From the NCBI GenBank assembly GCA_044869275.1, contig JBIOXB010000075.1, positions 13,120-77,119 of the forward strand: 64,000 nucleotides of DNA. The letters are read 5' to 3'. The stretch is from a bacterium. GTDB lineage: Bacteria > Zhuqueibacterota > Zhuqueibacteria > Zhuqueibacterales > Zhuqueibacteraceae. The translations under genes were made by a program, and so were the position numbers. This document shows, in pieces, positions 30,500 through 43,822 of this stretch (positions are counted from its first letter, which is position 1; each line of letters starts with the position of its first letter). Below the pieces are notes generated by a model. That model had not been told where the DNA came from and made no database searches. It saw only the letters and a program-made list of their open reading frames with translations.

Positions 30500-32629
30500 T
30501 TAAGGATGTGCAATTACCATCAATGTTTTGGCCCGCTTGATGGCGCACTGCATCGCCATTTGCAAATTCTCCGGATCGAGCGCGGCAAAGCTTTCGTCGA
30601 GAATGATCAAGTCGGCGTTTTGCAGCAGCGCGCGCGCCATGTACAGCCGGCTTTTTTCGCCATGTGATAGCTGCCAGCCGGTTTCACCCACCATTTGCAT
30701 GAGCCCGGCAGGCATGCGTTGCAACAATTCGCCCAGACCGAGCTCATGGCAAAGCATTTCGGCTTCTTCCAAATCTTCCGGTGAGGCTGGCCAGCGCCGG
30801 CCCATGAGCAAGTTGAACGCAAAGGTACCGGTCAGCACGTGGTTCTCGTGAAACTGCGGCGCGGAGACGATGCGCCGTCGCCAGCCCTCAGAGCCAAGCG
30901 TTTGCCAATCAAGGCCGTGCAACAACAGCAGGCCGGTATTGGGTTGGCGCAAACCGGTAAGAATCGAAGCGAGCGTCGATTTGCCGCCGCCGGAAGGACC
31001 TTGCAATAAAATGCGCTCGCCGCGCGAAATCTGAAAATCGTAGCTCTCTAAAACCGGCTTGCTATTGTCGTGATAGCGGAAAAACAGATCTTTCGCATTC
31101 ACCAATATCTCCGGAGCTTTTGGGCTTGCGCCATCGACGGTGAGAAGGGCGGCAAAAGTTTGTTTGGCGTAGGAGCGGGAAGCAGATTGCAGAAGAACGT
31201 TGAGCTGTCGCCACGCTACGACAGCGCCGGTGAAATAGGCGAGACTCTCGGCGATTTTGTGAAAAGCGCGGTAGGCGAGCAGGATGCCGCCCAGCCCGAC
31301 AGCCAACAGCGCCGGCGAAGTTTGGCCCGCAATGAAACTGGGCGCGAGCCCTGCCAACCCAACAATAAACCAGCCGCGTGAGGCAAACCCGATGGGAATA
31401 ACGCCGGTTTGATCCATCGTCTTGGTGTGCTCGAAATAACTCTCAAGTTCTTGGTCATCGGCATCATGCCAGCGACCGCGGCCTTCCTGAACGATACGGG
31501 TGCGATGGCCGACCATGCGCTCCACCAAATTGTTAGTCAGGTGGAGACAAGAATTCGTCCAGCCAACGCGCACGTGCAGGAAACGCCAACCCAACACCAC
31601 GGTCAGCGCCAGCCAAGCTGCAATCAACAACAGGTGAATAACACTGGCAGGACCTTGCGTTAAGACCACCGCTGCCAGGATCAGCTCGATGATGCCGAGC
31701 AAGCTGATGAAGCCGCCATTCAATGAAAAAGTTTCCAGGACCTCGGCTTGCGCAACGCGGCCGAAAAGTTGTCCCGCGCCTTGATGGCGAATCTCATCCG
31801 GATGCAGTTGCAAAGCGCCGTGCAGCAGCTTTTGTTTGATGAGCGCGCCGAAGCCGGTAGCGGCCAGTCCCTCCAGCCATTTCGACAACATCCGAAAAGG
31901 AATGAGCGTCAATAAAATGAGTGCCCACGCCAGCATCCAACCCCAATCGAGCCGGCCTTGCAACGCGCCTTTGCCAATCAGCCACCAAGAGATAATCCAC
32001 AGGAAGTAATAAACTACATAGGAGACTAGGAAGAACGAAAACCGGCTTGGCAGTTTGGCCGCGGCTGCATGCTTCCAAATGCTCTGCGTGAGCGGCAAGC
32101 GAATCAGCCAGCAACTGCCGATCCAGGCGTCGCTGAGCCGCTCGCGCAAGATGGCTGTACGCGCTTTGGTTTGGTGATGCTTCGCCACGCCGGCTTCGCC
32201 GAGCAATTGCTCGACTTCCGGCAACAATGGCGCTTCGATGGGTTCGCAAATCAATGCACGAATTTTTTCACTTGGCAGGCGATATACGAGGCGGTCCGAG
32301 CCGAGAATGGCGATCTTGCTGCGGCTTCGTCCGAGCAATACCAAGAGATAAGTTTTATTTTCGCAGGAAACACGGAGCAAAGCCGGCGCGGCGCGGTCGA
32401 GCAATTTCTCAACTTCGATGTAGTTGCTAAAAGTCGGTTCGGCTTCCAATCCCAGATTGCTGGCGGTGGTTTCGAGCCAGCGCGAAAATTTCTGACGATC
32501 ATCAGCCCAACCTTCGGGCATTGCCGGGATCTCGATTGGCTTTGCCGCAAGCCCATATCGCCGCGCCAGCTGCGCCAGGGCTTCATCCGCGCTCGCAAGG
32601 GGCCAGAGGTGTTTTTCGAGATTGATCAT
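30500..32629 (-). CDS. ABC exporter (degenerate C39-like N-terminus + TMD + NBD), likely partner subunit of the adjacent peptidase-containing transporter
   Basis: GPSGGGKS, degenerate signature LSHGE, ILDES, IAHP; TM helices; N-terminal domain lacks the QxxxxDCG motif. Confidence 0.85.
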   Translation of the reverse strand: MINLEKHLWPLASADEALAQLARRYGLAAKPIEIPAMPEGWADDRQKFSRWLETTASNLGLEAEPTFSNYIEVEKLLDRAAPALLRVSCENKTYLLVLLGRSRSKIAILGSDRLVYRLPSEKIRALICEPIEAPLLPEVEQLLGEAGVAKHHQTKARTAILRERLSDAWIGSCWLIRLPLTQSIWKHAAAAKLPSRFSFFLVSYVVYYFLWIISWWLIGKGALQGRLDWGWMLAWALILLTLIPFRMLSKWLEGLAATGFGALIKQKLLHGALQLHPDEIRHQGAGQLFGRVAQAEVLETFSLNGGFISLLGIIELILAAVVLTQGPASVIHLLLIAAWLALTVVLGWRFLHVRVGWTNSCLHLTNNLVERMVGHRTRIVQEGRGRWHDADDQELESYFEHTKTMDQTGVIPIGFASRGWFIVGLAGLAPSFIAGQTSPALLAVGLGGILLAYRAFHKIAESLAYFTGAVVAWRQLNVLLQSASRSYAKQTFAALLTVDGASPKAPEILVNAKDLFFRYHDNSKPVLESYDFQISRGERILLQGPSGGGKSTLASILTGLRQPNTGLLLLHGLDWQTLGSEGWRRRIVSAPQFHENHVLTGTFAFNLLMGRRWPASPEDLEEAEMLCHELGLGELLQRMPAGLMQMVGETGWQLSHGEKSRLYMARALLQNADLIILDESFAALDPENLQMAMQCAIKRAKTLMVIAHP

Positions 32630-32714
32630 GCAGAGCGGTTTTTTTGACAGGATTTTCAGGATGCACAGGATTACAAACTTGTTTTTCGAAAAAATCAAGG
32701 TTCACTAATTTTTT

Positions 32715-35426
32715 TCATTCAATGGCTGGTTGTGTTCCCAGCCAAACTTTTCGCCAGCGCTGGCTCGACCAGAGTTTCTCTCGCACGGCATTTTCCGCTT
32801 CCAATAATTGGCGGTAGCGCGAATCGGCGCGTTTGGCTAATTCCATGGGAATGCCGTCTTCGATCACTTGGCCGTTTTCAATAACCGACACGCGGTCGAA
32901 TTCCAAAGTCTCGCCGACGTCGTGCGTGATGCAAAGCAGCGTCGCGTTCTTCCACAACTCGCGGCAACGCGCCAGCAGCGTGCGGCGTTGCTGGCGATCC
33001 AACCCGCGAAACGGTTCGTCGAGTATCGCCAGCCGCGCGTTGCCGCGCAGCATAGCGCGACCGAGGCGCACGCGCTGTCCTTCGCCGCCGGAAACCAAAC
33101 GGCCGCCTTCGCCGAGCGGCGTTTGCAAACCCTCCGGCAATTTTTGCAGAACGCCAATAAGCTCCGCTTGCTCGATAACCATTCCGAGCGCAGCCGCATG
33201 TTGATTTTCGTTGCCGTAGTGCAAATTGTCAAACAGCGAGCGATTCCACAAATGCACCGCCGGATCGGCCCACGCGGTTTCCTGGCGCAATTGATCGAGC
33301 CGCTCACCGGCAAGAGCTTCGCCATCCACTAAAACTTTTCCGGCCGCCGGGCGATGCCATCCTAAGAAAACTCCGACTAAACTCGATTTGCCCGCGCCGG
33401 AAGGTCCGACAATCGCCGTATGGCTTCCAGAGGTAATCGTGAAATCGATGTCCTGCAGAATCGTGTGGCCTGCCACGCGCACGCTCACTTGCTGCAGCGC
33501 GAGCGCCACGCCATGAGTTTTTTCCTTGTGTATTTGTGTTGATGGAGAAGTCGAGGCGGTCTCACCTTCCTCAGGCGCGCCCAGCGGTTCGAGCAGGCGC
33601 AGGATGATATTGCGATGCGCCGGATATTGTTGCATGACCTGCGCCACGCCTTGGCCGAGCACCGGCAGATTCAGCGTCCAATACGCCATCAGCAGCACCC
33701 AATTGACTTCCGCGGTTCTGGCGAGATAGCTGAACAAAATCCAGGCGGCGAGGGCATATCCCGAGATCGCCAAAAGGCCATCGAGCATGGCGAGCATGCG
33801 ATGGCGGCTCAGGCTGGAGCGCGCCCATTCCACCAACAGACCCTCATGCTCGGTCCGCACCGCGCGTTCCGCACCATGGCTGCGAATGGGCACGAGCCCG
33901 AGCAATGCATCGAGATAAAAACGTCCGAGCGCGCCGCTGTGGGTTTGCAGGCGCGAATCTTTTTCCATCAACAACGGCAGCGTCATTAAGGGAAGCGCAA
34001 TCACCAAAGCCGCGGCAAGAAAGGCAAGCGGCGCGCTGGGCGGATCGATCCAAGCGATGCCGGCGGCCGTCAGCAGCAGCTCGAAGATCGCTCGCAAAAG
34101 GTTCGCGTAGATGTTAGGCATCTCGCTCAAGTGGTACACCACATGACTGCGTTGCACCATATCCGAAATGGGGCGGCTTTGAAAATAGCGATCCGCAAGC
34201 CGCGGGATTTTTTTCAAGAATGCCATGCGCAGCCGCAATTCCAGGCGACGGCCAAAGCGCCAATAATTGGAGATATTGGGAACTTGCAGCAGCAATAGGG
34301 CGAGCGCAAAAATGAGCAAAATCACCATCGCACCGGCGCGTTGGCTGGGCAGGCTAAGCACCTCCCAAACTTCCATAAGGCTGCGCAGAACCAACGCTTC
34401 GAGAATGAATGCCACTGCCGTGGCAAACAGCGCCGCGATCATGAGCGCCGGCGTTTTCCAGCCATCTTGAAAAATGAGACGAAAGAGCTCGCGATCCGGA
34501 CGGAGGGGCGCTTCTTCGAGCGCGGCGGCCAGCTCCGGCGAAAGCGTTTTATTCTGCGCCGGCGTCGCAGCGTCGCCTGGAGCGGCATCCACACCATTGT
34601 GAGGCAATGGCCGTAAGGCTCGCACCAAAACAGCGCCGCGCAAGAGCAGTTGTTCCGCCGACGCGCCTGCGGAAGGCGAGGGTCGAACCGACCAGTAGGC
34701 GTTGGGAATGGCGCGATTTTCTGAGGAAGACTCCTGTACTGATTTCTCGAAAAAACGTTCGAGCACATGCCCGGCTTGCGGTCCGGCTTTGATGCCATCC
34801 GAACGAATCAGAGCATCGACCATGCGGGTCGCGGCATCCAGCGCAGCGAGCGAATGCCAGCTTGTGTCGACAAGTGCAGCGTCGATTATACCGCGAGACC
34901 GTCTTGGTGCGAGGCCCAAGTTGGCCAAGCGCCGTTGCAGCGGATAGATGAATTCCTCCGAGTCCGCCCATTCTCGCCACCCCGCCGCTGAGACCGCCAT
35001 CGTATGCACATAAAGCTCATTTAGAAAAAAATGCGTTGAAGGCCAGCGCCGCCCGGTGCCGGGATCCATGATTTGGAGCACACCCCCGTGCCGGCGCCAG
35101 GCAACGACAAAGTGCGTGGCGCCATCGGCTTGGCGCACCACGACGATGGCTGGCAAGGCGTTCGCCTCGGAAAGCAGCAGATGATCGACGGGAATCATGA
35201 TTTGATCCGCGTCCAAGCCGAGCTGGCGCGCGATCTCTTCCATGGTGTCAATCGAAGTGCCGTCGACGTCGGTTTGGCAGGCTTCGCGCAGACGACCATA
35301 ACTGACGCGAATGCCGAATCCCTCGAGCAAACATTTGAGCGCCGCCGGCCCGCAATCCATCGCCGAAGTCTGCACCACTTCGGGGGCGAAATAACGACGC
35401 GAGATTTTTGAAGCACTGACTTTCAT
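32715..35426 (-). CDS. Peptidase C39-containing ABC transporter (PCAT)
   Basis: QTSAMDCGPAAL (catalytic Cys), THFVV (His), MDPG (Asp); TMD; GPSGAGKS, VSGGE, ILDEP, ITHD. Confidence 0.92.
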   Translation of the reverse strand: MKVSASKISRRYFAPEVVQTSAMDCGPAALKCLLEGFGIRVSYGRLREACQTDVDGTSIDTMEEIARQLGLDADQIMIPVDHLLLSEANALPAIVVVRQADGATHFVVAWRRHGGVLQIMDPGTGRRWPSTHFFLNELYVHTMAVSAAGWREWADSEEFIYPLQRRLANLGLAPRRSRGIIDAALVDTSWHSLAALDAATRMVDALIRSDGIKAGPQAGHVLERFFEKSVQESSSENRAIPNAYWSVRPSPSAGASAEQLLLRGAVLVRALRPLPHNGVDAAPGDAATPAQNKTLSPELAAALEEAPLRPDRELFRLIFQDGWKTPALMIAALFATAVAFILEALVLRSLMEVWEVLSLPSQRAGAMVILLIFALALLLLQVPNISNYWRFGRRLELRLRMAFLKKIPRLADRYFQSRPISDMVQRSHVVYHLSEMPNIYANLLRAIFELLLTAAGIAWIDPPSAPLAFLAAALVIALPLMTLPLLMEKDSRLQTHSGALGRFYLDALLGLVPIRSHGAERAVRTEHEGLLVEWARSSLSRHRMLAMLDGLLAISGYALAAWILFSYLARTAEVNWVLLMAYWTLNLPVLGQGVAQVMQQYPAHRNIILRLLEPLGAPEEGETASTSPSTQIHKEKTHGVALALQQVSVRVAGHTILQDIDFTITSGSHTAIVGPSGAGKSSLVGVFLGWHRPAAGKVLVDGEALAGERLDQLRQETAWADPAVHLWNRSLFDNLHYGNENQHAAALGMVIEQAELIGVLQKLPEGLQTPLGEGGRLVSGGEGQRVRLGRAMLRGNARLAILDEPFRGLDRQQRRTLLARCRELWKNATLLCITHDVGETLEFDRVSVIENGQVIEDGIPMELAKRADSRYRQLLEAENAVREKLWSSQRWRKVWLGTQPAIE

Positions 35427-35465: not shown

Positions 35466-36638
35466 CTAAAACTGAACCGTCTTTTTCGATGACTTCACCA
35501 ACTCGCTCACCGTTTGCAAAACCAGCGAAGCCGGCGAAACACGATCCACTTCGATTTCGATGGCACCGGTAAGGCCGTGTTGCAAGAGGAATGTTGGATT
35601 TTGCTGCGGCTGCACGCTGCACTCGACGCGGAATTTGCCGTCACGCGGCTCGCTGGCGACGTTGCCGACTTGCGCCGCGAGAATGCCGAATTGCGTCCAT
35701 GGGTAAGCATCCAAACGCATGCTGGCCGGTTGTCCAGAGCGAATGCGTCCCAAGGCCCGACCGACGGCAAAATTCGCCACGATGCGAACCTCGCCCGAGG
35801 GCACGATCGTCGCCAGCTTGTCGCCGGGTTTTACGACTCCGCCAACCTGCAGCTCTGTGGTCTCACCGATGCGGCCGCTGATCGGTGCGTGAATAAATTG
35901 CTCTTGAATCTCGAGCTGCTCGCGCGCAATCGTTTTTTCCGTGGTGGCAATTTGACCTTCGAACAGAGCCACTTCACGATTCAAGCGCTCGAGCTTGGCT
36001 TCCTGATCGCTCGTTTTGGTGCCCTGCTCGTTTTGCATTCGGCTGGCCGTCAATCGCAGCGCTTCGGCGGCCGCACGCGATCGGGTAGCATTGGCCTCAG
36101 CGCGGCGAAATTCCACTTCCGAAATCAGCCCGCGTTTAAAAAGCTCCCGCATGCGCTCCGCTTCCTTTTCGGCCAATTGGGCGGAAGTCTCGGCTTCGAG
36201 CTGGCGCGCACTGGCCTCTTTCACAGCTGTCGGCGCAGCTTGGAGCTCCTGCTCATACGCTCGCGCCTGCGCGCTGACTTCATTGCGCAACGCCGCGAGC
36301 TGATTCTGCAATCCGGCCAGATGAGATCTTTGCTCTTCCAAATGCAGCTTGTGCTCTTCGGTATCCAATTCCACGAGAACGTCGCCGGCAGTTACTTCCG
36401 CGCCGAGCTGCAAGCGCGTTTGCACAACACGGCCGCCGAACTGCACGGCCACCGGATGCACCGCGCTTTCCACTTCCAACCGCGCGGTCTCACTGGTTTC
36501 ATATAACGCAACGCGCGCCAGCAACAGCCACAGTGTCCAGACGATTAACAGCGCCAGCACCGTCAAAACCGCGAGATTGGCGCGGCGAAAACCATCCAAT
36601 TCAAGTGAACGAAGTGACCGAGAGAAAGATATAGACAT
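35466..36638 (-). CDS. HlyD family secretion/membrane fusion protein
   Basis: N-terminal TM, GGRVV...G..V..GDVL, long coiled coil, IHAPISG, YPWTQFG. Confidence 0.9.
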   Translation of the reverse strand: MSISFSRSLRSLELDGFRRANLAVLTVLALLIVWTLWLLLARVALYETSETARLEVESAVHPVAVQFGGRVVQTRLQLGAEVTAGDVLVELDTEEHKLHLEEQRSHLAGLQNQLAALRNEVSAQARAYEQELQAAPTAVKEASARQLEAETSAQLAEKEAERMRELFKRGLISEVEFRRAEANATRSRAAAEALRLTASRMQNEQGTKTSDQEAKLERLNREVALFEGQIATTEKTIAREQLEIQEQFIHAPISGRIGETTELQVGGVVKPGDKLATIVPSGEVRIVANFAVGRALGRIRSGQPASMRLDAYPWTQFGILAAQVGNVASEPRDGKFRVECSVQPQQNPTFLLQHGLTGAIEIEVDRVSPASLVLQTVSELVKSSKKTVQF

Positions 36639-36767: not shown

Positions 36768-38147
36768 TTACATGAACTCCAATTCCGGATTGCCAAGCAG
36801 CGTGATACTCTCCGTATTTCTTATGATCTGCGTATCTCCCTCGAGCACAGCAACCACGGCGGATTGAATAATTTCAAAGCATCTTTCTTTTGGTAAACCG
36901 ATGATCGCAAGAGGGAAAGACCCGATAATGACCAGTAGGGGAGTGCGAACATAGTGTTTCGCGGCATTCCGCGCTTCGAACACCAGGGCGTCACCGAAGG
37001 CTTCCTCCAAGCCGGGCCGAACGACGCCTTCGAACCACGCGCAAGAATTGCATCCCCAGCGTTTGTAAACGACGATATGCGCTTTGCCTTTTGGAACCTC
37101 AATTCCCTCCTGAATCACTGACCGCACCAATTTGTGCGCTCCGTAGCTCAAGCGCCGGTTCGTGATCTGGCACGCTATCCGCACCGCTGCCCAGGTCAAA
37201 CCGAAAGCGATTCCCGCCGTGCCCGCTAAGCTGGCGAGCTGCGCGTTGCTCGATTTTGTTGCCGTCAGAGAGGCCGCCATAGCGACCATTGCGGAGAATC
37301 CCACCATTAAACAGGGCATGCAAAGAATACGTTGCTTAAGGAGACGGCTCAACAAGAAAGCATGCGCACCCATCGCAACAAAGATGCCCACGAGGATGGC
37401 AAAATGGCCGAGGGTATGCAACGTGCCGGCCCATAGCACGGAGTACAAACCGGTTCCCAGCCATGCCAAAGGCAATCCACCCAACAAGCTGGTGGCGCGG
37501 TCACAGGAAACGCAGTTTTTGGCCAACAGCGCTGACCATAGGGAGCCGCCAAAACAAACCGCCAAAGCCGTCAATGCCAACCATGATGGTTTCTGTCTCG
37601 CCGATAACATCCACGGTAAATGGTCAAAAGTTGCCATGAGCGTTGCCACAGCCACGATTCCCACACTCAGACCAAAGACCAGCCGGGGGCCGGCGCGTCG
37701 CAGGTCTCTTAACTCCTTCAGCGCCTGCTGCTCAGCATCGTGATCGCGGCTCAGCACCACCACCTCTCCGGTCCAGCGTTGGCAGAATTGTTCGCGGGAA
37801 AGAGTGACCAATCCAACGGCGGGATCAGCGATGAATGCTTCGCGATCGTCAACCTGATGCAGAACGACGAAACATTCGCGCGCGTTTTCCTTGAAGACCA
37901 TGATTGCAGGTAGAGCCACTGATGGGAGCTCCTCGTAAGGGCCTTCCATGGCCACTGCACTGAGACCGTACTGGCGGGCTGTCCCCAGCAGCAGCGCTAG
38001 CTCTTCGATTTTATCGGCATTGCCGAGAAGACGCATCTCTTGAAGGCCGATTGGACTGTGAAGATGCTGTGCGACAATGGCCAGGGCCGCCGCGCCATTT
38101 TCTTGGGGCCGCCCTTGCCGAACGCAAAGAAGATTTTGCTCAATCAA
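36768..38147 (-). CDS. Fusion: inactive C39-like domain + VKOR-like membrane domain + thioredoxin-like domain
   Basis: RQGRPQENGAAAL (Cys->Asn), CFVVL (His lost), IADP, F.QRWTG; VKOR-like CVSC and CMPC pairs in the TM region; C-terminal WGCNSC; TTG start after AAGGAG. Confidence 0.8.
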   Translation of the reverse strand: MIEQNLLCVRQGRPQENGAAALAIVAQHLHSPIGLQEMRLLGNADKIEELALLLGTARQYGLSAVAMEGPYEELPSVALPAIMVFKENARECFVVLHQVDDREAFIADPAVGLVTLSREQFCQRWTGEVVVLSRDHDAEQQALKELRDLRRAGPRLVFGLSVGIVAVATLMATFDHLPWMLSARQKPSWLALTALAVCFGGSLWSALLAKNCVSCDRATSLLGGLPLAWLGTGLYSVLWAGTLHTLGHFAILVGIFVAMGAHAFLLSRLLKQRILCMPCLMVGFSAMVAMAASLTATKSSNAQLASLAGTAGIAFGLTWAAVRIACQITNRRLSYGAHKLVRSVIQEGIEVPKGKAHIVVYKRWGCNSCAWFEGVVRPGLEEAFGDALVFEARNAAKHYVRTPLLVIIGSFPLAIIGLPKERCFEIIQSAVVAVLEGDTQIIRNTESITLLGNPELEFM

Positions 38148-38184
38148 GATGCAAATGCTCCTTTTCTTCTTCTTTCATACGGCG

Positions 38185-38219
38185 GGCGGGCAGTCCCTAA
38201 TCAATCGGAGCTGCCCGCC
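38185..38219 (-). other. Stem-loop 3' of precursor peptide 3
   Basis: ggcgggcag (38185-38193) / ctgcccgcc (38211-38219); no U-tract on the coding strand. Confidence 0.65.
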
Positions 38220-38236
38220 ACCGAAGACCCTGTAGA

Positions 38237-38293
38237 TTAGCGCCAGCAACCTCGGGGGCACGGACCGGCCTTGATGTTGGTTTTTACCTTCAT
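38237..38293 (-). CDS. Micro-precursor peptide 3, MKVKTNIKAG-PCPRGCWR (18 aa)
   Basis: Manual translation; AAGGAG RBS 7 nt upstream; leader shared with two neighbouring ORFs; below the ORF-track size cutoff. Confidence 0.85.
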   Translation of the reverse strand: MKVKTNIKAGPCPRGCWR

Positions 38294-38375
38294 GACGTTC
38301 TCCTTATGAGGGGTTGGGTTAACAGCTTTGTGGTTTGTTTTGTTTTACTTCTATTCTTTCGACTTCCACTTGTTT

Positions 38376-38402
38376 GATGCAACTCGTATTGAAATTCCAT
38401 AA
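38376..38402 (-). promoter_or_regulatory. Putative ECF-sigma promoter TTATGGAA-N14-GCATC for peptide 3
   Basis: Bipartite motif with identical spacing about 80 nt upstream of each precursor ATG. Confidence 0.7.
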
Positions 38403-38429
38403 GACCTTTTTCGTCGTTTGGGAGATCGC

Positions 38430-38458
38430 GACGAGTCCCGTTGACTTCGAGACTCGTC
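38430..38458 (-). other. Stem-loop 3' of precursor peptide 2
   Basis: gacgagtc (38430-38437) / gactcgtc (38451-38458). Confidence 0.65.
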
Positions 38459-38470
38459 AGGAGCTGGCGC

Positions 38471-38527
38471 CTAGTTCATCGCCAGACCTTTGGGCTTGCC
38501 GGCTTTCACGTTCGTTTTTACCTTCAT
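38471..38527 (-). CDS. Micro-precursor peptide 2, MKVKTNVKAG-KPKGLAMN (18 aa)
   Basis: Manual translation; AAGGAG RBS 7 nt upstream; shared leader. Confidence 0.85.
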   Translation of the reverse strand: MKVKTNVKAGKPKGLAMN

Positions 38528-38604
38528 GGCTTTCTCCTTCGAGAGTTTGGGGTTAATTGCTTCTGGTTTGGTTTCAGTTTTTTGTTTTCAACTTCCACAT
38601 ACTT

Positions 38605-38631
38605 GATGCAGCTTGTATCGAAATTCCATAA
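38605..38631 (-). promoter_or_regulatory. Putative ECF-sigma promoter TTATGGAA-N14-GCATC for peptide 2
   Basis: Exact motif copy with the same 14-nt spacer. Confidence 0.7.
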
Positions 38632-38649
38632 AATTTTCTTGTCTGTTTT

Positions 38650-38694
38650 TGAGAGCGCGCGGAGCGACCTTTTTGACCTCCAGCCGCGCTCTCA
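38650..38694 (-). other. Stem-loop 3' of precursor peptide 1
   Basis: tgagagcgcg (38650-38659) / cgcgctctca (38685-38694). Confidence 0.65.
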
Positions 38695-38712
38695 GCAGCG
38701 CCGGTGTCTTGC

Positions 38713-38775
38713 TTAGCGAATGTTCTGCGAAATGCACTTGTGGCAGCCGGCTTTCACGTTCGTTTTCACCTTCAT
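38713..38775 (-). CDS. Micro-precursor peptide 1, MKVKTNVKAG-CHKCISQNIR (20 aa)
   Basis: Manual translation; GAGGTG RBS; shared leader. Confidence 0.85.
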   Translation of the reverse strand: MKVKTNVKAGCHKCISQNIR

Positions 38776-38859
38776 GACTCACCTCGTTGGTTTGGGTTTG
38801 AACTGCTATCTTTGTGAGTTGATTCTCTTCTGCCTTCATTTCCTGCTTTCACTCACAGA

Positions 38860-38886
38860 GATGCACCCACCACAAAAATTCCACAA
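38860..38886 (-). promoter_or_regulatory. Putative ECF-sigma promoter TTGTGGAA-N14-GCATC for peptide 1
   Basis: One-mismatch copy of the motif, same spacing. Confidence 0.68.
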
Positions 38887-39115: not shown

Positions 39116-39706
39116 TTGCCCCTTATAATTGATCGAAAAGCTGAAGTCGCACTTTCAGATATAGAATTGATTGCGCGGTACAGGGAATCCCGAGATGTGG
39201 CTTACCCGGGCGTGCTCTTCCAGCGTTATGCCCACTTGGTTCTGGGTATTTGCTTGAAGTATCTCAAGAACGAAGAGGATAGTAAAGACGCGGCCATGGA
39301 ACTGTTCGAGAATCTCACCGAAATGCTGGTGAAACACGAGATCACCAATTTCAAAAGCTGGTTGCATACCACCACGAAAAATCATTGCCTGATGAAGCTG
39401 CGTAAGCCGGAAGCCAAAGCCATCAGACGAAATTTGGAAGGCGTGGATGAAAGTTTATTTATGGAAAATCCCGAGTCCGAGCATCTTATAGTAGAAGAAA
39501 TGCGTGATTTACAAATCCGCCATTTGGGAACGGCCTTACCACGGTTGAACGAAGAACAGAGGGTTTGCATCGAATTGTTTTATTTGCAGGGAAAAAGCTA
39601 TCAAGAGGTGGCGGAAACCACCGGATATAGTTTGAATCAAGTCAAGAGCCATATCCAAAACGGAAAGAGAAACTTGAAGAACTTTTTGACGAATGTGAAG
39701 GAATAA
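39116..39706 (+). CDS. ECF sigma-70 family factor
   Basis: Region 2 (LFQRY...DAAMELF...FKSWL.TTTKNHCL) and region 4 (LNEEQRVCIELFY...SYQEVAE.TG...VKSHIQNGKRNL); TTG start after AGGAG. Confidence 0.93.
   Translation: MPLIIDRKAEVALSDIELIARYRESRDVAYPGVLFQRYAHLVLGICLKYLKNEEDSKDAAMELFENLTEMLVKHEITNFKSWLHTTTKNHCLMKLRKPEAKAIRRNLEGVDESLFMENPESEHLIVEEMRDLQIRHLGTALPRLNEEQRVCIELFYLQGKSYQEVAETTGYSLNQVKSHIQNGKRNLKNFLTNVKE
39459..39485 (+). promoter_or_regulatory. Intragenic copy of the TTATGGAA-N14-GCATC motif inside the ECF sigma gene
   Basis: ttatggaa-aatcccgagtccga-gcatc, encoding FMENPESEHL; oriented toward the anti-sigma gene. Confidence 0.6.
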
Positions 39707-39710
39707 AGCG

Positions 39711-40595
39711 ATGCTGGTTGCATTTGAGAATGTGAACGCCGCGGACGAAAGAACGACTCCGTGTTTGAGTTTCGAACAAATGGTGGGTTATGAGGAAAAA
39801 ACCTTATCCCCGGCGCAATATGCTGCAGTTGATGAGCACTTGACGCAGTGTGAGCTTTGCAGCGAGGCCATGGAAGGCTTTGCCGCTTTTCCGGATAAAG
39901 CCCGGCGGTCGTTCTTGGTGCAAGAGCTGCACGAGGAGATTCAGAGAAGATCCCTGCCGGAAGTTGCACCGGAATCTGAGCCTACATGGTCCGAACGACT
40001 CGCAGGAGTGGTGCGATCGGCAAAAAGCTGGCTTGCCGGAACGATGAAAAATTCCCACTCGATTTTGATCACACCGCGATACGGTGTGAAGCTGGCTTAT
40101 GCTATGGCAACGACTTTCTTGGTCGGCGTAGTTTCGGTAATTTATCTGAATCGCGAGACGCCGGGCGAGAAGTTGTTTGCTTCATACTTTCAGCCTTATC
40201 CCAACCTCGCCTCCTCCGTGCGCGGCGAGCAAGACGCAAGCAAATTGCAGGAGGCTTTGCAATCCTATGATGCGCAAGATTTCGAGGCCGCGCTGCAGGA
40301 GCTGCGAGACATTCTCGCCTCCCAGCCCAACAACGTCATGGCGAATTTTTATGCCGGTATTTCTTATTTGAATCTCAAAGAAACTGAACGAGCGATTGCC
40401 AGTCTGCAAAAAGTGCTTGCGCTCAACGATGCGAAGTTTTCAGCACCGGCGCTTTGGTATCTGGCGCTCGCTTACCTGCAGCAAGATCAATTGGTGCAAG
40501 CACGTGCCACTCTGGAAGGCATTACCGCCAATCAACACCTGTACCAAGCGCAAGCCATAAAGCTGCTGGAGCAACTTCGTTCCGGTGGCCAGTGA
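39711..40595 (+). CDS. Zinc-finger (HxxxCxxC) anti-sigma factor with TM helix and C-terminal TPRs
   Basis: DEHLTQCELC, TM AYAMATTFLVGVVSVIYL, TPR motifs FYAGISYL and WYLALAYL; 4 nt after the sigma stop. Confidence 0.85.
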   Translation: MLVAFENVNAADERTTPCLSFEQMVGYEEKTLSPAQYAAVDEHLTQCELCSEAMEGFAAFPDKARRSFLVQELHEEIQRRSLPEVAPESEPTWSERLAGVVRSAKSWLAGTMKNSHSILITPRYGVKLAYAMATTFLVGVVSVIYLNRETPGEKLFASYFQPYPNLASSVRGEQDASKLQEALQSYDAQDFEAALQELRDILASQPNNVMANFYAGISYLNLKETERAIASLQKVLALNDAKFSAPALWYLALAYLQQDQLVQARATLEGITANQHLYQAQAIKLLEQLRSGGQ

Positions 40596-40675
40596 GTGGT
40601 TAACAATCGTCCGTTTCGTACACGCTAAACATTGAAAACGGGCTACTTCAGACACACCCGCCGCGGAGGTCTACC

Positions 40676-43600
40676 ATGAATCCCAGCCGAGTTATATTGG
40701 CGGGCTTTGCGGTTCTCCTTGCCTGTTGCGCCCAAAAAGAAGAGGCCGCGCGAGAAAAGGCTGCGGCTTATTCTTCACCCTCCGACCACGATCTCACCCG
40801 AGCGGAAAACTTTGCCAAGGAAGCCAAATACGATAGCGCGATAACGGCTTTAGAAAGGGCGCGTGCCGGAGATGAAGCCGCAGGAAATTGGGAAGGCGTG
40901 GTGCAGGCGGACAATAAGATCGGCGAATATCTGACGGAAAAAGGTTTGTATGATCAGGCACTCGAGCTGCTGAAGAAGACTTTGACGCTGGGCCAGAGCA
41001 AAATTGGTGAGCAGCACCGTTTGGTCGCGGAAACATATCATAACCTGGGTTACACCAACTGGCGACAGGGCAAACTCGACGAGGCACTGGCGCATCACAA
41101 GAGAGCCCTGGCGCTTCGCTTGGCGGTTCTCGGCGAGCGCCATGCCGAAGTCGGACAAAGTTATCATTTTCTTGGTGAGGTTTATCAGTCGCAAGGGGAT
41201 CTTGATCGCGCCATCGATTTTCACGAATTGGGTCTGTCCATCCGCAAGGCGGTGCTGGGAGAGCGGGATGTCGCCGTGGCCGAAAGTTACAATGCGACGG
41301 CCGGCGATTACTGGTTCAAAGGCGATTATGACAAAGCGCTCGACTATTGCCATAAAGCTTTGGCGATTTGGCGCAACACCGTCGGCGAGCAGCATCCTAA
41401 GACCGCGAATTCCTACGGTAACCTCGCCATTCTTTATGCCACCAAGGGCGATCATGTGCAGGCGCTGGAATTTTTCCATAAAGAGCTGGCCATTCGTCTA
41501 GCGATCTTTGGCGAGCAGCATCCTCGCGTGGCCAACACTTATAGCAACATCGGACTCACCCACGAAATGCTCGGCGAGTATGACCAGGCCCTGGTTTATA
41601 CCGAAAAAGCCCTCGTGGGCATTGCGGCGCGCATGGGAGAGAAGCATCCTTTGCTCGCGAACACTTATAATAATAAGGGAAAGATTCTTCATCACCTCCG
41701 CCATGACGATCAAGCGATCGCGGCGCATCACAAGGCTTTGTCGATTCTGTTGCCAACCGTCGGCGAAAAACATCCTTTTGTGGCTCAGGCTTATAACCAT
41801 ATCGGTGAAGCGCATATCGGCAGGCGGGAGTATGCGCCAGCGCTCGCCTCGTTCAACAAAGCAGCGTCGGTCATGCAAATATTGTATGGCAAGCACCATC
41901 CCGAGCTGGCGCAGGTTTACAATAATCTAGGCAAGACGCACCTCAAGCTGCGCCAGTATGATTTCGCGCTGCAGGATTTTCAGCAATCGATTAGCGCGAA
42001 TATTCCGACTTTGCTCGATGACGATATCTATGGCGAGCCGCCATTGCTCAATGTGCTCTCGGAGAATGATTTATTGCAGTCGCTGAGCGGCAAGGCGCAG
42101 GCTTTCGCCGAGCGCCACGACCATCAGTCGCGAGATCCGCGCGATCTCAAAGCCGCTGTCGGGGCCTATCAGCACGCCTCGCGCTTGATCGACAAAATGC
42201 GCAGCAGCTATAAAGCCGAAGGCTCCAAATTGTTTTTGTCGCGGAACGCCCGGGATATTTTTGACAAGGCGATTCAAAGCACGAGGCGCCTACACGATCC
42301 CGCCGATCGTGAAACCGCGTTCTTATTCGCTGAAAAGAGTAAGGCGGGCATTATTCTGGAGGCGCTTACCGAGGCCGACGCCAAGGAGTATGCCGGCATC
42401 CACGATAGCTTGCTGGCGAAAGAGCATCAACTGCGCATCGATCTGGCATTTTATGACCGCAAACTGAGCGAAGCGCAGATGAATCCCCAAAGCGCGGATA
42501 GCGCCAAAACCGCGCAATGGCGTGACGAGGAGTTTCAGCTCAAGCAAGATTATGAGGCCCTGCTGGAACGTTTCGAGCGCGAACATCCGCATTACTACAA
42601 TCTCAAATATCGCCTCAACACCGTCACCGTGGCGCAGGTGAGAAGTGAGATTTTGAGCGAGAATACTGCGTTGGTGGAATATTTCACCGGCAATGATTCG
42701 CTGTTTATATTTACGATCACTGTGAATGCTTTTGACTTAACTGCCACGGCCAAAGACACTGGGTTTGAAACGGATATTCAGGCGTTGCGCCAGGGCATCA
42801 TTGAGCAGGACTTCGGCAAATACACGCGGTCCGCGCATCGGCTTTATCAAACCTTGCTCGCGCCAGTGGCGGGCAAGCTCGCTGCAACCAATCTGATCAT
42901 CATTCCCGACGCGGCGCTCAGCACAGTTCCGTTTGAAGCGTTGTTGGCGCATCCCGTCGCTGCCGAAGGCGGCTTGCAAGATTTTGCCAGCCTTCCGTTT
43001 GTTTTGAACGATCACTCCTTGAGCTATGCCTATTCGGCAACGCTATTGCAGCAGACGATCAAAAGGAAACAGGCGACGACGAGCCGCGACTACCTGGCCT
43101 TTGCGCCGGTCTTCGCGGAGGGTCTGCCCGTGGGCACGCGCGGCGGGGATCTTTTCAAAGAAAATTTTGCCGCCGGCTCGTCCCAGGTTGCTGCCACAGC
43201 TGCTGTTTCAGCTACACGCATGCGCGGCTATTTGCCTGCCTCCAAAATGGAAGTCACGAATGTGTTTGGCGAGTTTAACGCGCGCTATAATTTTTTTGAG
43301 CGTTGGTTTGGCACGAAGTCGCAGATTTATTTGGAGCGCGAAGCAAAAGAAGAGAGACTCAAGTCGCGCGATTTAAGCGCCTATCGTTTCCTCCACTTTG
43401 CCACACATGGTCTCGTCAACGAGAAAAACCCCAAGCTCTCCGGCTTGGTTTTTGCTCGGGAAGACTCGAGTTCAAAAGAAGACGGCGTTTTGCATTTGAG
43501 CGAGATATATAATTTGAATCTGAACGCCGATCTCGTGGTATTGAGCGCGTGCGAGACCGGGCTCGGACAAGTGGTCAAAGGGGAGGGTATCATCGGTCTG

Positions 43601-43822
43601 ACCCGAGGCTTTCTCTATGCGGGTGCATCCAATCTGCTCGTCTCATTGTGGCAGGTGAGTGATGCAACCACGGCGGATTTGATGGTGGATTTTTATGACA
43701 AGATGCTCGAGGGCATGAGCAAGCCCGAAGCTTTGCGCGAAGCCAAATTGCAAATGATTCGCCGCCATCCCGAATATGCCAAGCCGTATTACTGGGCGCC
43801 GTTTGTTTTGGTGGGAAGATGA
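40676..43822 (+). CDS. Lipoprotein with TPR array and CHAT (caspase-like) protease domain
   Basis: Signal/lipobox VLLAC; many GE.HP.VA.TY.N.G TPRs; IIPD.AL..VPFEAL, HFATHG (His), VLSACETG (Cys), SLWQV, YWAPF. Confidence 0.92.
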   Translation: MNPSRVILAGFAVLLACCAQKEEAAREKAAAYSSPSDHDLTRAENFAKEAKYDSAITALERARAGDEAAGNWEGVVQADNKIGEYLTEKGLYDQALELLKKTLTLGQSKIGEQHRLVAETYHNLGYTNWRQGKLDEALAHHKRALALRLAVLGERHAEVGQSYHFLGEVYQSQGDLDRAIDFHELGLSIRKAVLGERDVAVAESYNATAGDYWFKGDYDKALDYCHKALAIWRNTVGEQHPKTANSYGNLAILYATKGDHVQALEFFHKELAIRLAIFGEQHPRVANTYSNIGLTHEMLGEYDQALVYTEKALVGIAARMGEKHPLLANTYNNKGKILHHLRHDDQAIAAHHKALSILLPTVGEKHPFVAQAYNHIGEAHIGRREYAPALASFNKAASVMQILYGKHHPELAQVYNNLGKTHLKLRQYDFALQDFQQSISANIPTLLDDDIYGEPPLLNVLSENDLLQSLSGKAQAFAERHDHQSRDPRDLKAAVGAYQHASRLIDKMRSSYKAEGSKLFLSRNARDIFDKAIQSTRRLHDPADRETAFLFAEKSKAGIILEALTEADAKEYAGIHDSLLAKEHQLRIDLAFYDRKLSEAQMNPQSADSAKTAQWRDEEFQLKQDYEALLERFEREHPHYYNLKYRLNTVTVAQVRSEILSENTALVEYFTGNDSLFIFTITVNAFDLTATAKDTGFETDIQALRQGIIEQDFGKYTRSAHRLYQTLLAPVAGKLAATNLIIIPDAALSTVPFEALLAHPVAAEGGLQDFASLPFVLNDHSLSYAYSATLLQQTIKRKQATTSRDYLAFAPVFAEGLPVGTRGGDLFKENFAAGSSQVAATAAVSATRMRGYLPASKMEVTNVFGEFNARYNFFERWFGTKSQIYLEREAKEERLKSRDLSAYRFLHFATHGLVNEKNPKLSGLVFAREDSSSKEDGVLHLSEIYNLNLNADLVVLSACETGLGQVVKGEGIIGLTRGFLYAGASNLLVSLWQVSDATTADLMVDFYDKMLEGMSKPEALREAKLQMIRRHPEYAKPYYWAPFVLVGR

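Follow-up and report, generated by a model that had tools for sequence, protein, structure and literature searches.

Gram-positive pheromones such as ComC/CSP are short secreted peptides that are processed by ATP-binding cassette (ABC) transporters with a C39 peptidase domain and are encoded beside regulators. In bacteroidetocin loci, a Cys-containing peptide with a double-glycine (GG) leader is combined with a thiol oxidoreductase, on which full activity depends, and with an exporter of the peptidase-ABC type (Coyne et al. 2019, PMC6671954). We analyzed a 64,000-nucleotide (nt) stretch of DNA, hereafter the window, from a bacterium of the family Zhuqueibacteraceae (assembly GCA_044869275.1, contig JBIOXB010000075.1, positions 13,120 to 77,119), in which a sequence-only reading had proposed three overlooked micro-precursors that share a 10-residue leader and lie near a C39-ABC gene. 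Our results indicate that these micro-open reading frames (micro-ORFs) are probably precursors of very short exported peptides that carry a minimal Ala-Gly leader and are served by a dedicated C39-ABC exporter. The leader is half the usual length, does not look helical, and stays nearly the same, residue by residue, in Acidobacteriota, Planctomycetota, Chloroflexota and methanotrophs, on products of 5-15 residues.

The coordinates, minus strand and translations first given for the three ORFs were confirmed (Table 1). They share the start MKVKTN[VI]KAG, and in each the leader ends in Ala-Gly. The strong ribosome-binding sites attributed to them are present, with GAGG or AGGAG located 6-9 nt 5' of every ATG. 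A degenerate DNA pattern for the leader matched at three sites in the window and at none in 100 dinucleotide-shuffled versions; across the whole 6.67-Mb assembly these three sites were the only matches, and reversed-pattern controls returned 0. Leader codons are much better conserved among the three units than the flanking untranslated regions (UTRs), and their differences are mostly synonymous (gtg/gta, acg/acc, aaa/aag and ggc/ggt), as the sequence-only reading had said, with one further change (gtg/atc) that replaces Val with Ile. Gene callers overlook micro-genes of this kind, and annotated public copies are labelled 'hypothetical protein'.

Conservation could be assessed in G014, a genome (89% complete) from the same family as the window's genome and a different genus. 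It contains 8 copies of the leader pattern, and the other 59 of the 60 relatives contain none. The CHKCISQNIR precursor is identical in G014, and the 8 nt differences between the two genes, which fall in 6 codons, are all synonymous, including a TCG to AGT change that keeps Ser. Only 35 of the 171 possible single substitutions in this ORF are synonymous, and when 8 substitutions were drawn at random 400,000 times, the peptide came out unchanged once. These differences bear out the proposed selection at the protein level, and the three micro-ORFs appear from their sequences to be genuine genes under protein-level purifying selection; we infer that all three are translated. The description of the cores as unrelated and hypervariable stood in part. 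At the slot orthologous to precursor 3, G014 encodes PRWRWW in place of PCPRGCWR, with the flanks and hairpin conserved, while core 1 is identical to the letter in the other genus. Some cores thus appear to be held constant and others replaced, which would make 'hypervariable' half right. The locus sequence was identical, with no variants, in three soil-metagenome contig sets, which therefore gave no population-level signal.

Overlapping ORFs of 73-91 amino acids (aa) at 38588-38839 (-), 38441-38716 (+) and 38335-38556 (+) span the poorly conserved UTRs and were taken as spurious. Precursor 1 weakly resembles the N-terminus of ribosomal protein L36 (MKV+..VK..C..C), probably by chance; its match to the L36 model TIGR01022 was confined to the N-terminal 14 residues and reached 16.0 bits against a cut-off of 22.7 (E 0.0097).

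Each unit also carries a conserved box, TGGAATTT-N10-TGCATC, approximately 110 nt 5' of its ATG. Zero-mismatch matches in the genome are restricted to these three positions, and G014 keeps the box on its two transporter-linked peptides. The spacing fits neither a sigma-54 nor a sigma-70 promoter (sigma-70 scan); dependence on an extracytoplasmic function (ECF) sigma factor is our guess, taken solely from the GGAAT motif. With three tandem units 5' of the operon, each with this box and with a hairpin lacking a U tract, the locus might instead hold upstream ORFs that regulate the transporter operon in cis, or a repeated non-coding element that does so, without any exported product. We consider this highly improbable, as one core kept its amino acids across 8 synonymous changes, the leader protein is shared across phyla while its codons vary freely, and the UTRs on either side show far less conservation than the ORFs. 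Moreover, members of the family are found far from any transporter and in tandem arrays.

The family extends well beyond this locus. A scan of the degenerate leader pattern over 185,579 species genomes matched at least 129 stretches, and from the information content of the pattern we estimate fewer than one chance match in a set of this size. Most of the stretches come from Acidobacteriota (Blastocatellia, Pyrinomonadaceae, Terriglobia, Bryobacteraceae and Thermoanaerobaculia); other hosts are Pirellulaceae (Planctomycetota), Chloroflexota, Myxococcota, Verrucomicrobiota, Methylococcaceae, and metagenome-assembled genomes (MAGs) of Acidimicrobiia and Desulfonema. They contain at least 177 distinct sites, of which 161 are good ORFs, 8 have a TTG start (mostly internal cassette copies), 5 have no stop in the available DNA, and 3 are ribosomal protein L24, whose N-terminus (MKIKTHVKAGDEVVV...; L093, L112 and L131) is a false-positive class of the pattern. 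Among the matches listed, a Shine-Dalgarno-like site at -18 to -4 precedes 147 of the 161 good ORFs, 140 have a single core (median 7.5 aa, mode 6 aa) and 21 are multi-cassette ORFs. Because every synonymous codon occurs at each leader position in the good ORFs from several phyla, the conservation is at the protein level. The residue after the fixed AG in the 140 single-core ORFs is G in 32, P in 21, Q in 19, S in 18, A in 13 and others in the rest, and under the one leader stand core families as different as xxxWGx, GGGNFGG, xxxxNHNQTxxR, FNPQPDPPGRR, xGxRxDPNG and a Cys-rich group. The multi-cassette precursors (L080, L071, L026, L016, L019 and others, all outside the window) repeat the unit [4-8 variable aa]-NHNQT[VM]AR-G-LKVKT[NS]VKAG up to 6 times, and single-core counterparts of these cassettes end in ...NHNxTVR.

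Six leader peptides of at least 20 aa had no family match in Pfam and NCBIfam at E up to 1. A full-text literature search for the leader strings returned nothing relevant, and topic searches found no description of this leader in the searched library, though one may exist elsewhere.

The sequence-only reading had named a lack of enrichment of the leader motif beside homologous transporters as grounds for rejecting its proposal. Within the set of 61 genomes formed by the window's own (G000) and its 60 relatives, leader and transporter are confined to the same two, G000 and G014, and are found in 0 of the 59 others. Neighbor clustering of 80 leader loci of at least 3 kb (counted per locus, with some loci overlapping on one contig) recovered a homologue of the second ABC protein of the operon (N-terminal 500 aa) in 30 loci, the specific C39 domain in 23, HlyD in 19 and a Ser/Thr kinase in 17, and ECF sigma factors also recurred. 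In a sample from one acidobacterial family, the C39 domain of the transporter, encoded at window positions 34917-35426 and taken as a marker, was present in 19 of 151 genomes, each at E 6e-61 or better, and the 3 of 151 genomes that have the exact leader all fall within those 19. The leader is therefore enriched beside homologous transporters. Because related genomes are not independent, we attach no p-value to this link. The full-length second ABC gene is present once in the window's genome, 6 kb from the peptides.

Because the search pattern had fixed the amino acids of the leader, an unbiased look was taken from the side of the transporter loci. Among 15 further such loci in the acidobacterial family, variant-leader micro-ORFs were found within about 10 kb in 7 and in none of the other 8. 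Of the remaining genomes, all 5 that were tested had variant leaders elsewhere; in these a relaxed pattern gave 26 hits versus 4 for reversed-pattern controls, and approximately 22 of the 25 listed relaxed-pattern sites are short ORFs with family cores. The wider consensus from this transporter-led search is M-[KR]-x-[KQ]-[TS]-x-[VILM]-[KR]-A-G.

The C39 domain of the transporter has a mean column identity of 70% over 16 loci from several phyla, and all 16 aligned domains retain its catalytic Gln, Cys, His and Asp; it is as conserved as the leader. A predicted complex of the L060 C39 domain (16-row alignment) with its cognate 60-aa precursor scored 0.15 against a mark of 0.32, a score that counts neither for nor against binding. 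In the window's own phylum, leader and transporter are present in 2 of 167 genomes, and this patchy spread, together with the many acidobacterial hosts, suggests that the genes were acquired horizontally. The GC content, 55-58% around the locus, falls to 47% only across the peptide genes and the intergenic DNA and shows no sign of an island.

One gene of the operon, on which the sequence-only reading had not remarked, encodes a 459-aa protein whose sole Pfam match is Peptidase_C39 (E 4.7e-20). A structure model of the N-terminal 150 aa gave a good C39-like domain (predicted local distance difference test, pLDDT, 84.5), and the N-terminus matches the PCAT1 peptidase domain (7s5j, Z 11.7). The residue that aligns with Cys21 of PCAT1 is Asn17 in the 459-aa protein, and Asn and Ser occupy the position of the catalytic Cys in the two full-length homologues. 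A phmmer search with residues 145-459 against 1.84 billion representatives yielded 204 homologues. Of the 46 scanned homologues of at least 351 aa, 43 matched Peptidase_C39 at E up to 0.01 (2 of the 43 weakly). Over 50 aligned rows (the long homologues, the window's protein W459 and the ABC protein P0003), the column of the catalytic Cys contains S in 25 rows, a gap in 7, N in 5, G and T in 4 each, C and R in 2 each and D in 1, and Arg predominates in that of the His. The C39-like domains of this family therefore appear to be non-proteolytic.

The remainder of the protein points to redox chemistry. Approximately six hydrophobic helices carry conserved CVSC and CxPC motifs, and CVSC, CxxC and GCxxC are kept in 3 of 3 full-length homologues. 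The C39-like domain is carried by the forms of about 450 aa, while the CxxC membrane module and the thioredoxin-like domain are found family-wide. In the predicted C-terminal domain, C366-C369 (GCxxC) lies at the N-terminus of helix 367-387 (pLDDT 60-85), and residues 340-437 match thioredoxins at Z 7.3-8.2, which is a moderate range (3hxs: Z 8.2, root-mean-square deviation 2.7, 87 aligned); the C-terminus is thus modelled as a thioredoxin fold. The membrane module has no Pfam model. Neither residues 145-340 nor the homologues P0001 and P0002 matched Pfam VKOR (PF07884) at E up to 10, a distant homologue (P0122) had a VKOR match below threshold (E 0.0012), and language-model Atlas leads of 0.80-0.81 pointed to VKOR+Thioredoxin(+C39) clusters, with a low-confidence model of the transmembrane (TM) part. 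Structural matches of the membrane region to rhodopsin were set aside as not meaningful, the model being poor there. Redox terms searched for in PMC3140520 were not present in that text. The predicted make-up of the protein fits disulfide formation in the two Cys-bearing cores.

A leader-binding domain of C39 type fused to a redox module would also suit RiPPs, peptides made on the ribosome and modified after translation, in which the tag would mainly recruit modifying enzymes, here the 459-aa protein, and the products would be modified beyond a disulfide. One conserved leader over many unrelated core families is a RiPP pattern, and the multi-cassette precursors resemble a cyanobactin-type architecture. 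The neighborhoods speak against it: no recurrent modifying enzyme was found beside the 80 leader loci, where only ABC, HlyD, kinase and ECF sigma genes and scattered metabolic genes appeared, and none of these loci yielded a homologue of the 459-aa protein. We regard RiPP precursors as improbable here.

We favor the reading of the micro-ORFs as precursors of minimal exported peptides. They would be translated into 18-20-aa precursors, and the leader would be recognized by the active C39 domain of the exporter encoded just downstream and probably also bound by the C39-like domains of the 459-aa protein and the second ABC protein. The dead C39-like domain of the 459-aa protein would hold the leader while the redox module oxidizes the Cys pairs of cores 1 and 3. 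During export through the ABC pair and the HlyD adaptor, the leader would be cut after Ala-Gly to release CHKCISQNIR (10 aa), KPKGLAMN (8 aa) and PCPRGCWR (8 aa). Leader binding, Ala-Gly cleavage, export and disulfides are here deduced. The original interpretation is supported overall, since all of its computationally testable parts held.

Several observations weigh against this reading. Canonical double-glycine leaders have 15-30 aa and form a helix with hydrophobic residues at -4, -7, -12 and -15; the 10-aa leader fits only at -4 (Val/Ile) and has Lys at -7, so recognition by C39 would have to work differently. In the multi-cassette precursors, cutting at KAG only would leave the next leader on the product, which implies a second processing step or another logic. 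No transporter lies within 6 kb in 50 of the 80 leader loci, and many peptide genes are orphans. The part played by the 459-aa protein meets further difficulties. Its homologue was not found in G014 (89% complete) although CHKCISQNIR is kept there, and the oxidoreductase is therefore not demonstrably required. The membrane part of its model is of low confidence (mean pLDDT 48), and by the positive-inside rule the three CxxC motifs would all face the cytoplasm, which is unusual for a disulfide-forming enzyme.

Table 1. Features of the micro-peptide locus (window coordinates).
Feature	Position	Strand	Remarks
Precursor 1, MKVKTNVKAG/CHKCISQNIR, MKVKTNVKAGCHKCISQNIR	38775-38713	minus	20 aa plus stop
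Precursor 2, MKVKTNVKAG/KPKGLAMN, MKVKTNVKAGKPKGLAMN	38527-38471	minus	18 aa plus stop
Precursor 3, MKVKTNIKAG/PCPRGCWR, MKVKTNIKAGPCPRGCWR	38293-38237	minus	18 aa plus stop
Upstream box TGGAATTT-N10-TGCATC, precursor 1	38860..38883	minus	promoter-like, putative function
Same upstream box, precursor 2	38605..38628	minus	promoter-like
Same upstream box, precursor 3	38376..38399	minus	promoter-like
GC-rich hairpin 3' of precursor 1	38650..38694	minus	-26 kcal/mol, z -1.1, without U tract
Hairpin 3' of precursor 2	38426..38462	minus	-21.4 kcal/mol, z -2.65, without U tract
Hairpin 3' of precursor 3	38180..38223	minus	-29.8 kcal/mol, z -2.85, without U tract
459-aa protein, putative leader-guided thiol-disulfide oxidoreductase	36768..38147	minus	C39-like + ~6 predicted TM + thioredoxin fold
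HlyD-family membrane-fusion adaptor	35466..36638	minus	76% identity in G014
903-aa C39 peptidase-ABC exporter	32715..35426	minus	catalytic Gln19, Cys25, His105, Asp121
Second ABC half-transporter, 732-aa ORF	30500..32698	minus	true start may be internal MINLEK...
ECF sigma factor, divergent from peptide genes	39116..39706	plus	syntenic in G014, 64% identity
Anti-sigma-like protein, zf-HC2 N-terminus + TPR C-terminus	39711..40595	plus	syntenic in G014, 48% identity

The other genes of the operon are those of an export system. The 903-aa exporter matches Pfam PF03412 (E 2.8e-20) as well as ABC_tran and ABC_membrane, and in G014 the HlyD gene lies directly 3' of the peptide genes. The N-terminal region of the second ABC protein, for which there is no Pfam family, is possibly a degenerate C39-like domain, given a Cys-to-Ser replacement seen in a weak alignment and an Atlas lead (0.90-0.92). 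Homologues of this second ABC protein also occur in the methanotroph leader loci L082 and L039, L082 having a C39-ABC and HlyD as well. In four methanotroph loci (L028, L039, L074 and L082; Methylococcaceae), the same leader precedes cores of 15-27 aa rich in His, Arg, Gly and Asp (for example ...GHVRHGVGEHGPNHT), which are possibly metal-binding peptides.

Divergent to the peptide genes, the region 39116-43822 (+) encodes the ECF sigma factor, the zf-HC2/TPR anti-sigma-like protein and then a TPR-CHAT protein. TPR or CHAT proteins recur near peptides of the leader family in about 8 other contigs. We infer that the anti-sigma-like protein is linked to the peptides.

A double-glycine-type leader with a peptidase-ABC and HlyD is also the layout of class II microcins and bacteriocins, and the peptides might be toxins of this kind, exported to kill competitors. 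Core 3 was diversified between two genera at an orthologous slot, and the bacteroidetocin loci likewise have a thiol oxidoreductase (PMC6671954). At 5-10 aa, however, the cores are much shorter than the unmodified bacteriocins that are known; the bacteroidetocins have 42 aa (PMC6671954). No immunity-like small membrane gene is present in the locus, and the recurrent partners are regulatory, namely ECF sigma and anti-sigma genes at this locus and Ser/Thr kinases at 17 of the 80. Toxins are therefore an unlikely explanation.

The function of the peptides is the least certain step of our interpretation. Because of their small size, the synteny of the ECF sigma and anti-sigma genes and the recurrent kinases, we tentatively favor a diffusible signal, though with less than even confidence; an antimicrobial or metal-binding role is possible. 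A more elaborate proposal, which we think rather doubtful as a whole, is that they are phylum-spanning pheromones of Gram-negative-type soil bacteria, 5-15 aa long and released by one conserved peptidase-containing ABC transporter (PCAT). Before export, an oxidoreductase that faces the cytoplasm and is guided by its C39-like domain would, in this locus, introduce the disulfide. Outside the cell, the TPR domain of the adjacent anti-sigma protein, or elsewhere Ser/Thr kinases, would sense the peptide; the ECF sigma factor so freed would drive the upstream box and lead to autoinduction.

If the peptides are signals, they would represent peptide-based communication in abundant, poorly cultured soil phyla. 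Together, the short tag and the conserved C39 domain would form a compact module for secretion and cleavage, and the family of C39-like/thioredoxin fusions suggests that dead peptidase domains have been reused as leader readers.

Among known systems, the locus resembles the double-glycine/PCAT systems (PCAT1/CtA, ComA/ComC and LahT; class II bacteriocins and microcins) in having a small gene beside a C39-ABC and HlyD, a leader that ends in a small-residue pair (Ala-Gly here; GG, GA, GS or AG right before the core in leaders of this type), and the C39 Gln, Cys, His and Asp. It differs from them in its 10-aa, Lys-rich leader of alternating polar and hydrophobic residues, whereas their leaders are amphipathic helices of 15-30 aa, and also in its products of 5-15 aa, a leader that is near letter-identical across phyla, and its multi-cassette forms. 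NHLP/Nif11 export (TIGR03796, TIGR03797 and TIGR03794) likewise employs two ABC genes, one with C39, plus HlyD. For both the C39-ABC and the C39-like domain of the 459-aa protein, TIGR03796 is the best NCBIfam match; the second ABC protein and HlyD match TIGR03797 and TIGR03794, respectively, at lower rank. All three fall far below the curated cut-offs in bits (175.4/853.3 for TIGR03796, 104.4/709.4 for TIGR03797 and 49.6/156.2 for TIGR03794), and the precursors here have no NHLP or Nif11 domain. Compared with the Gram-positive pheromones, the hosts belong to Gram-negative-type soil phyla, and the candidate sensors are an anti-sigma TPR protein or Ser/Thr kinases rather than two-component kinases.

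With the bacteroidetocins, the locus shares a Cys peptide, a dedicated thiol oxidoreductase and a peptidase-ABC in one small locus (PMC6671954). Their 15-aa leader, 42-aa mature toxin and extra 5-TM protein (PMC6671954) contrast with the 10-aa leader and 8-10-aa cores of the window, where the oxidoreductase additionally carries a C39-like domain that is predicted to be inactive. Peptide export by a C39-ABC is itself well known; what appears to be new here is a minimal leader that crosses phyla with its own conserved C39 partner, the micro-products, and the multi-cassette forms.

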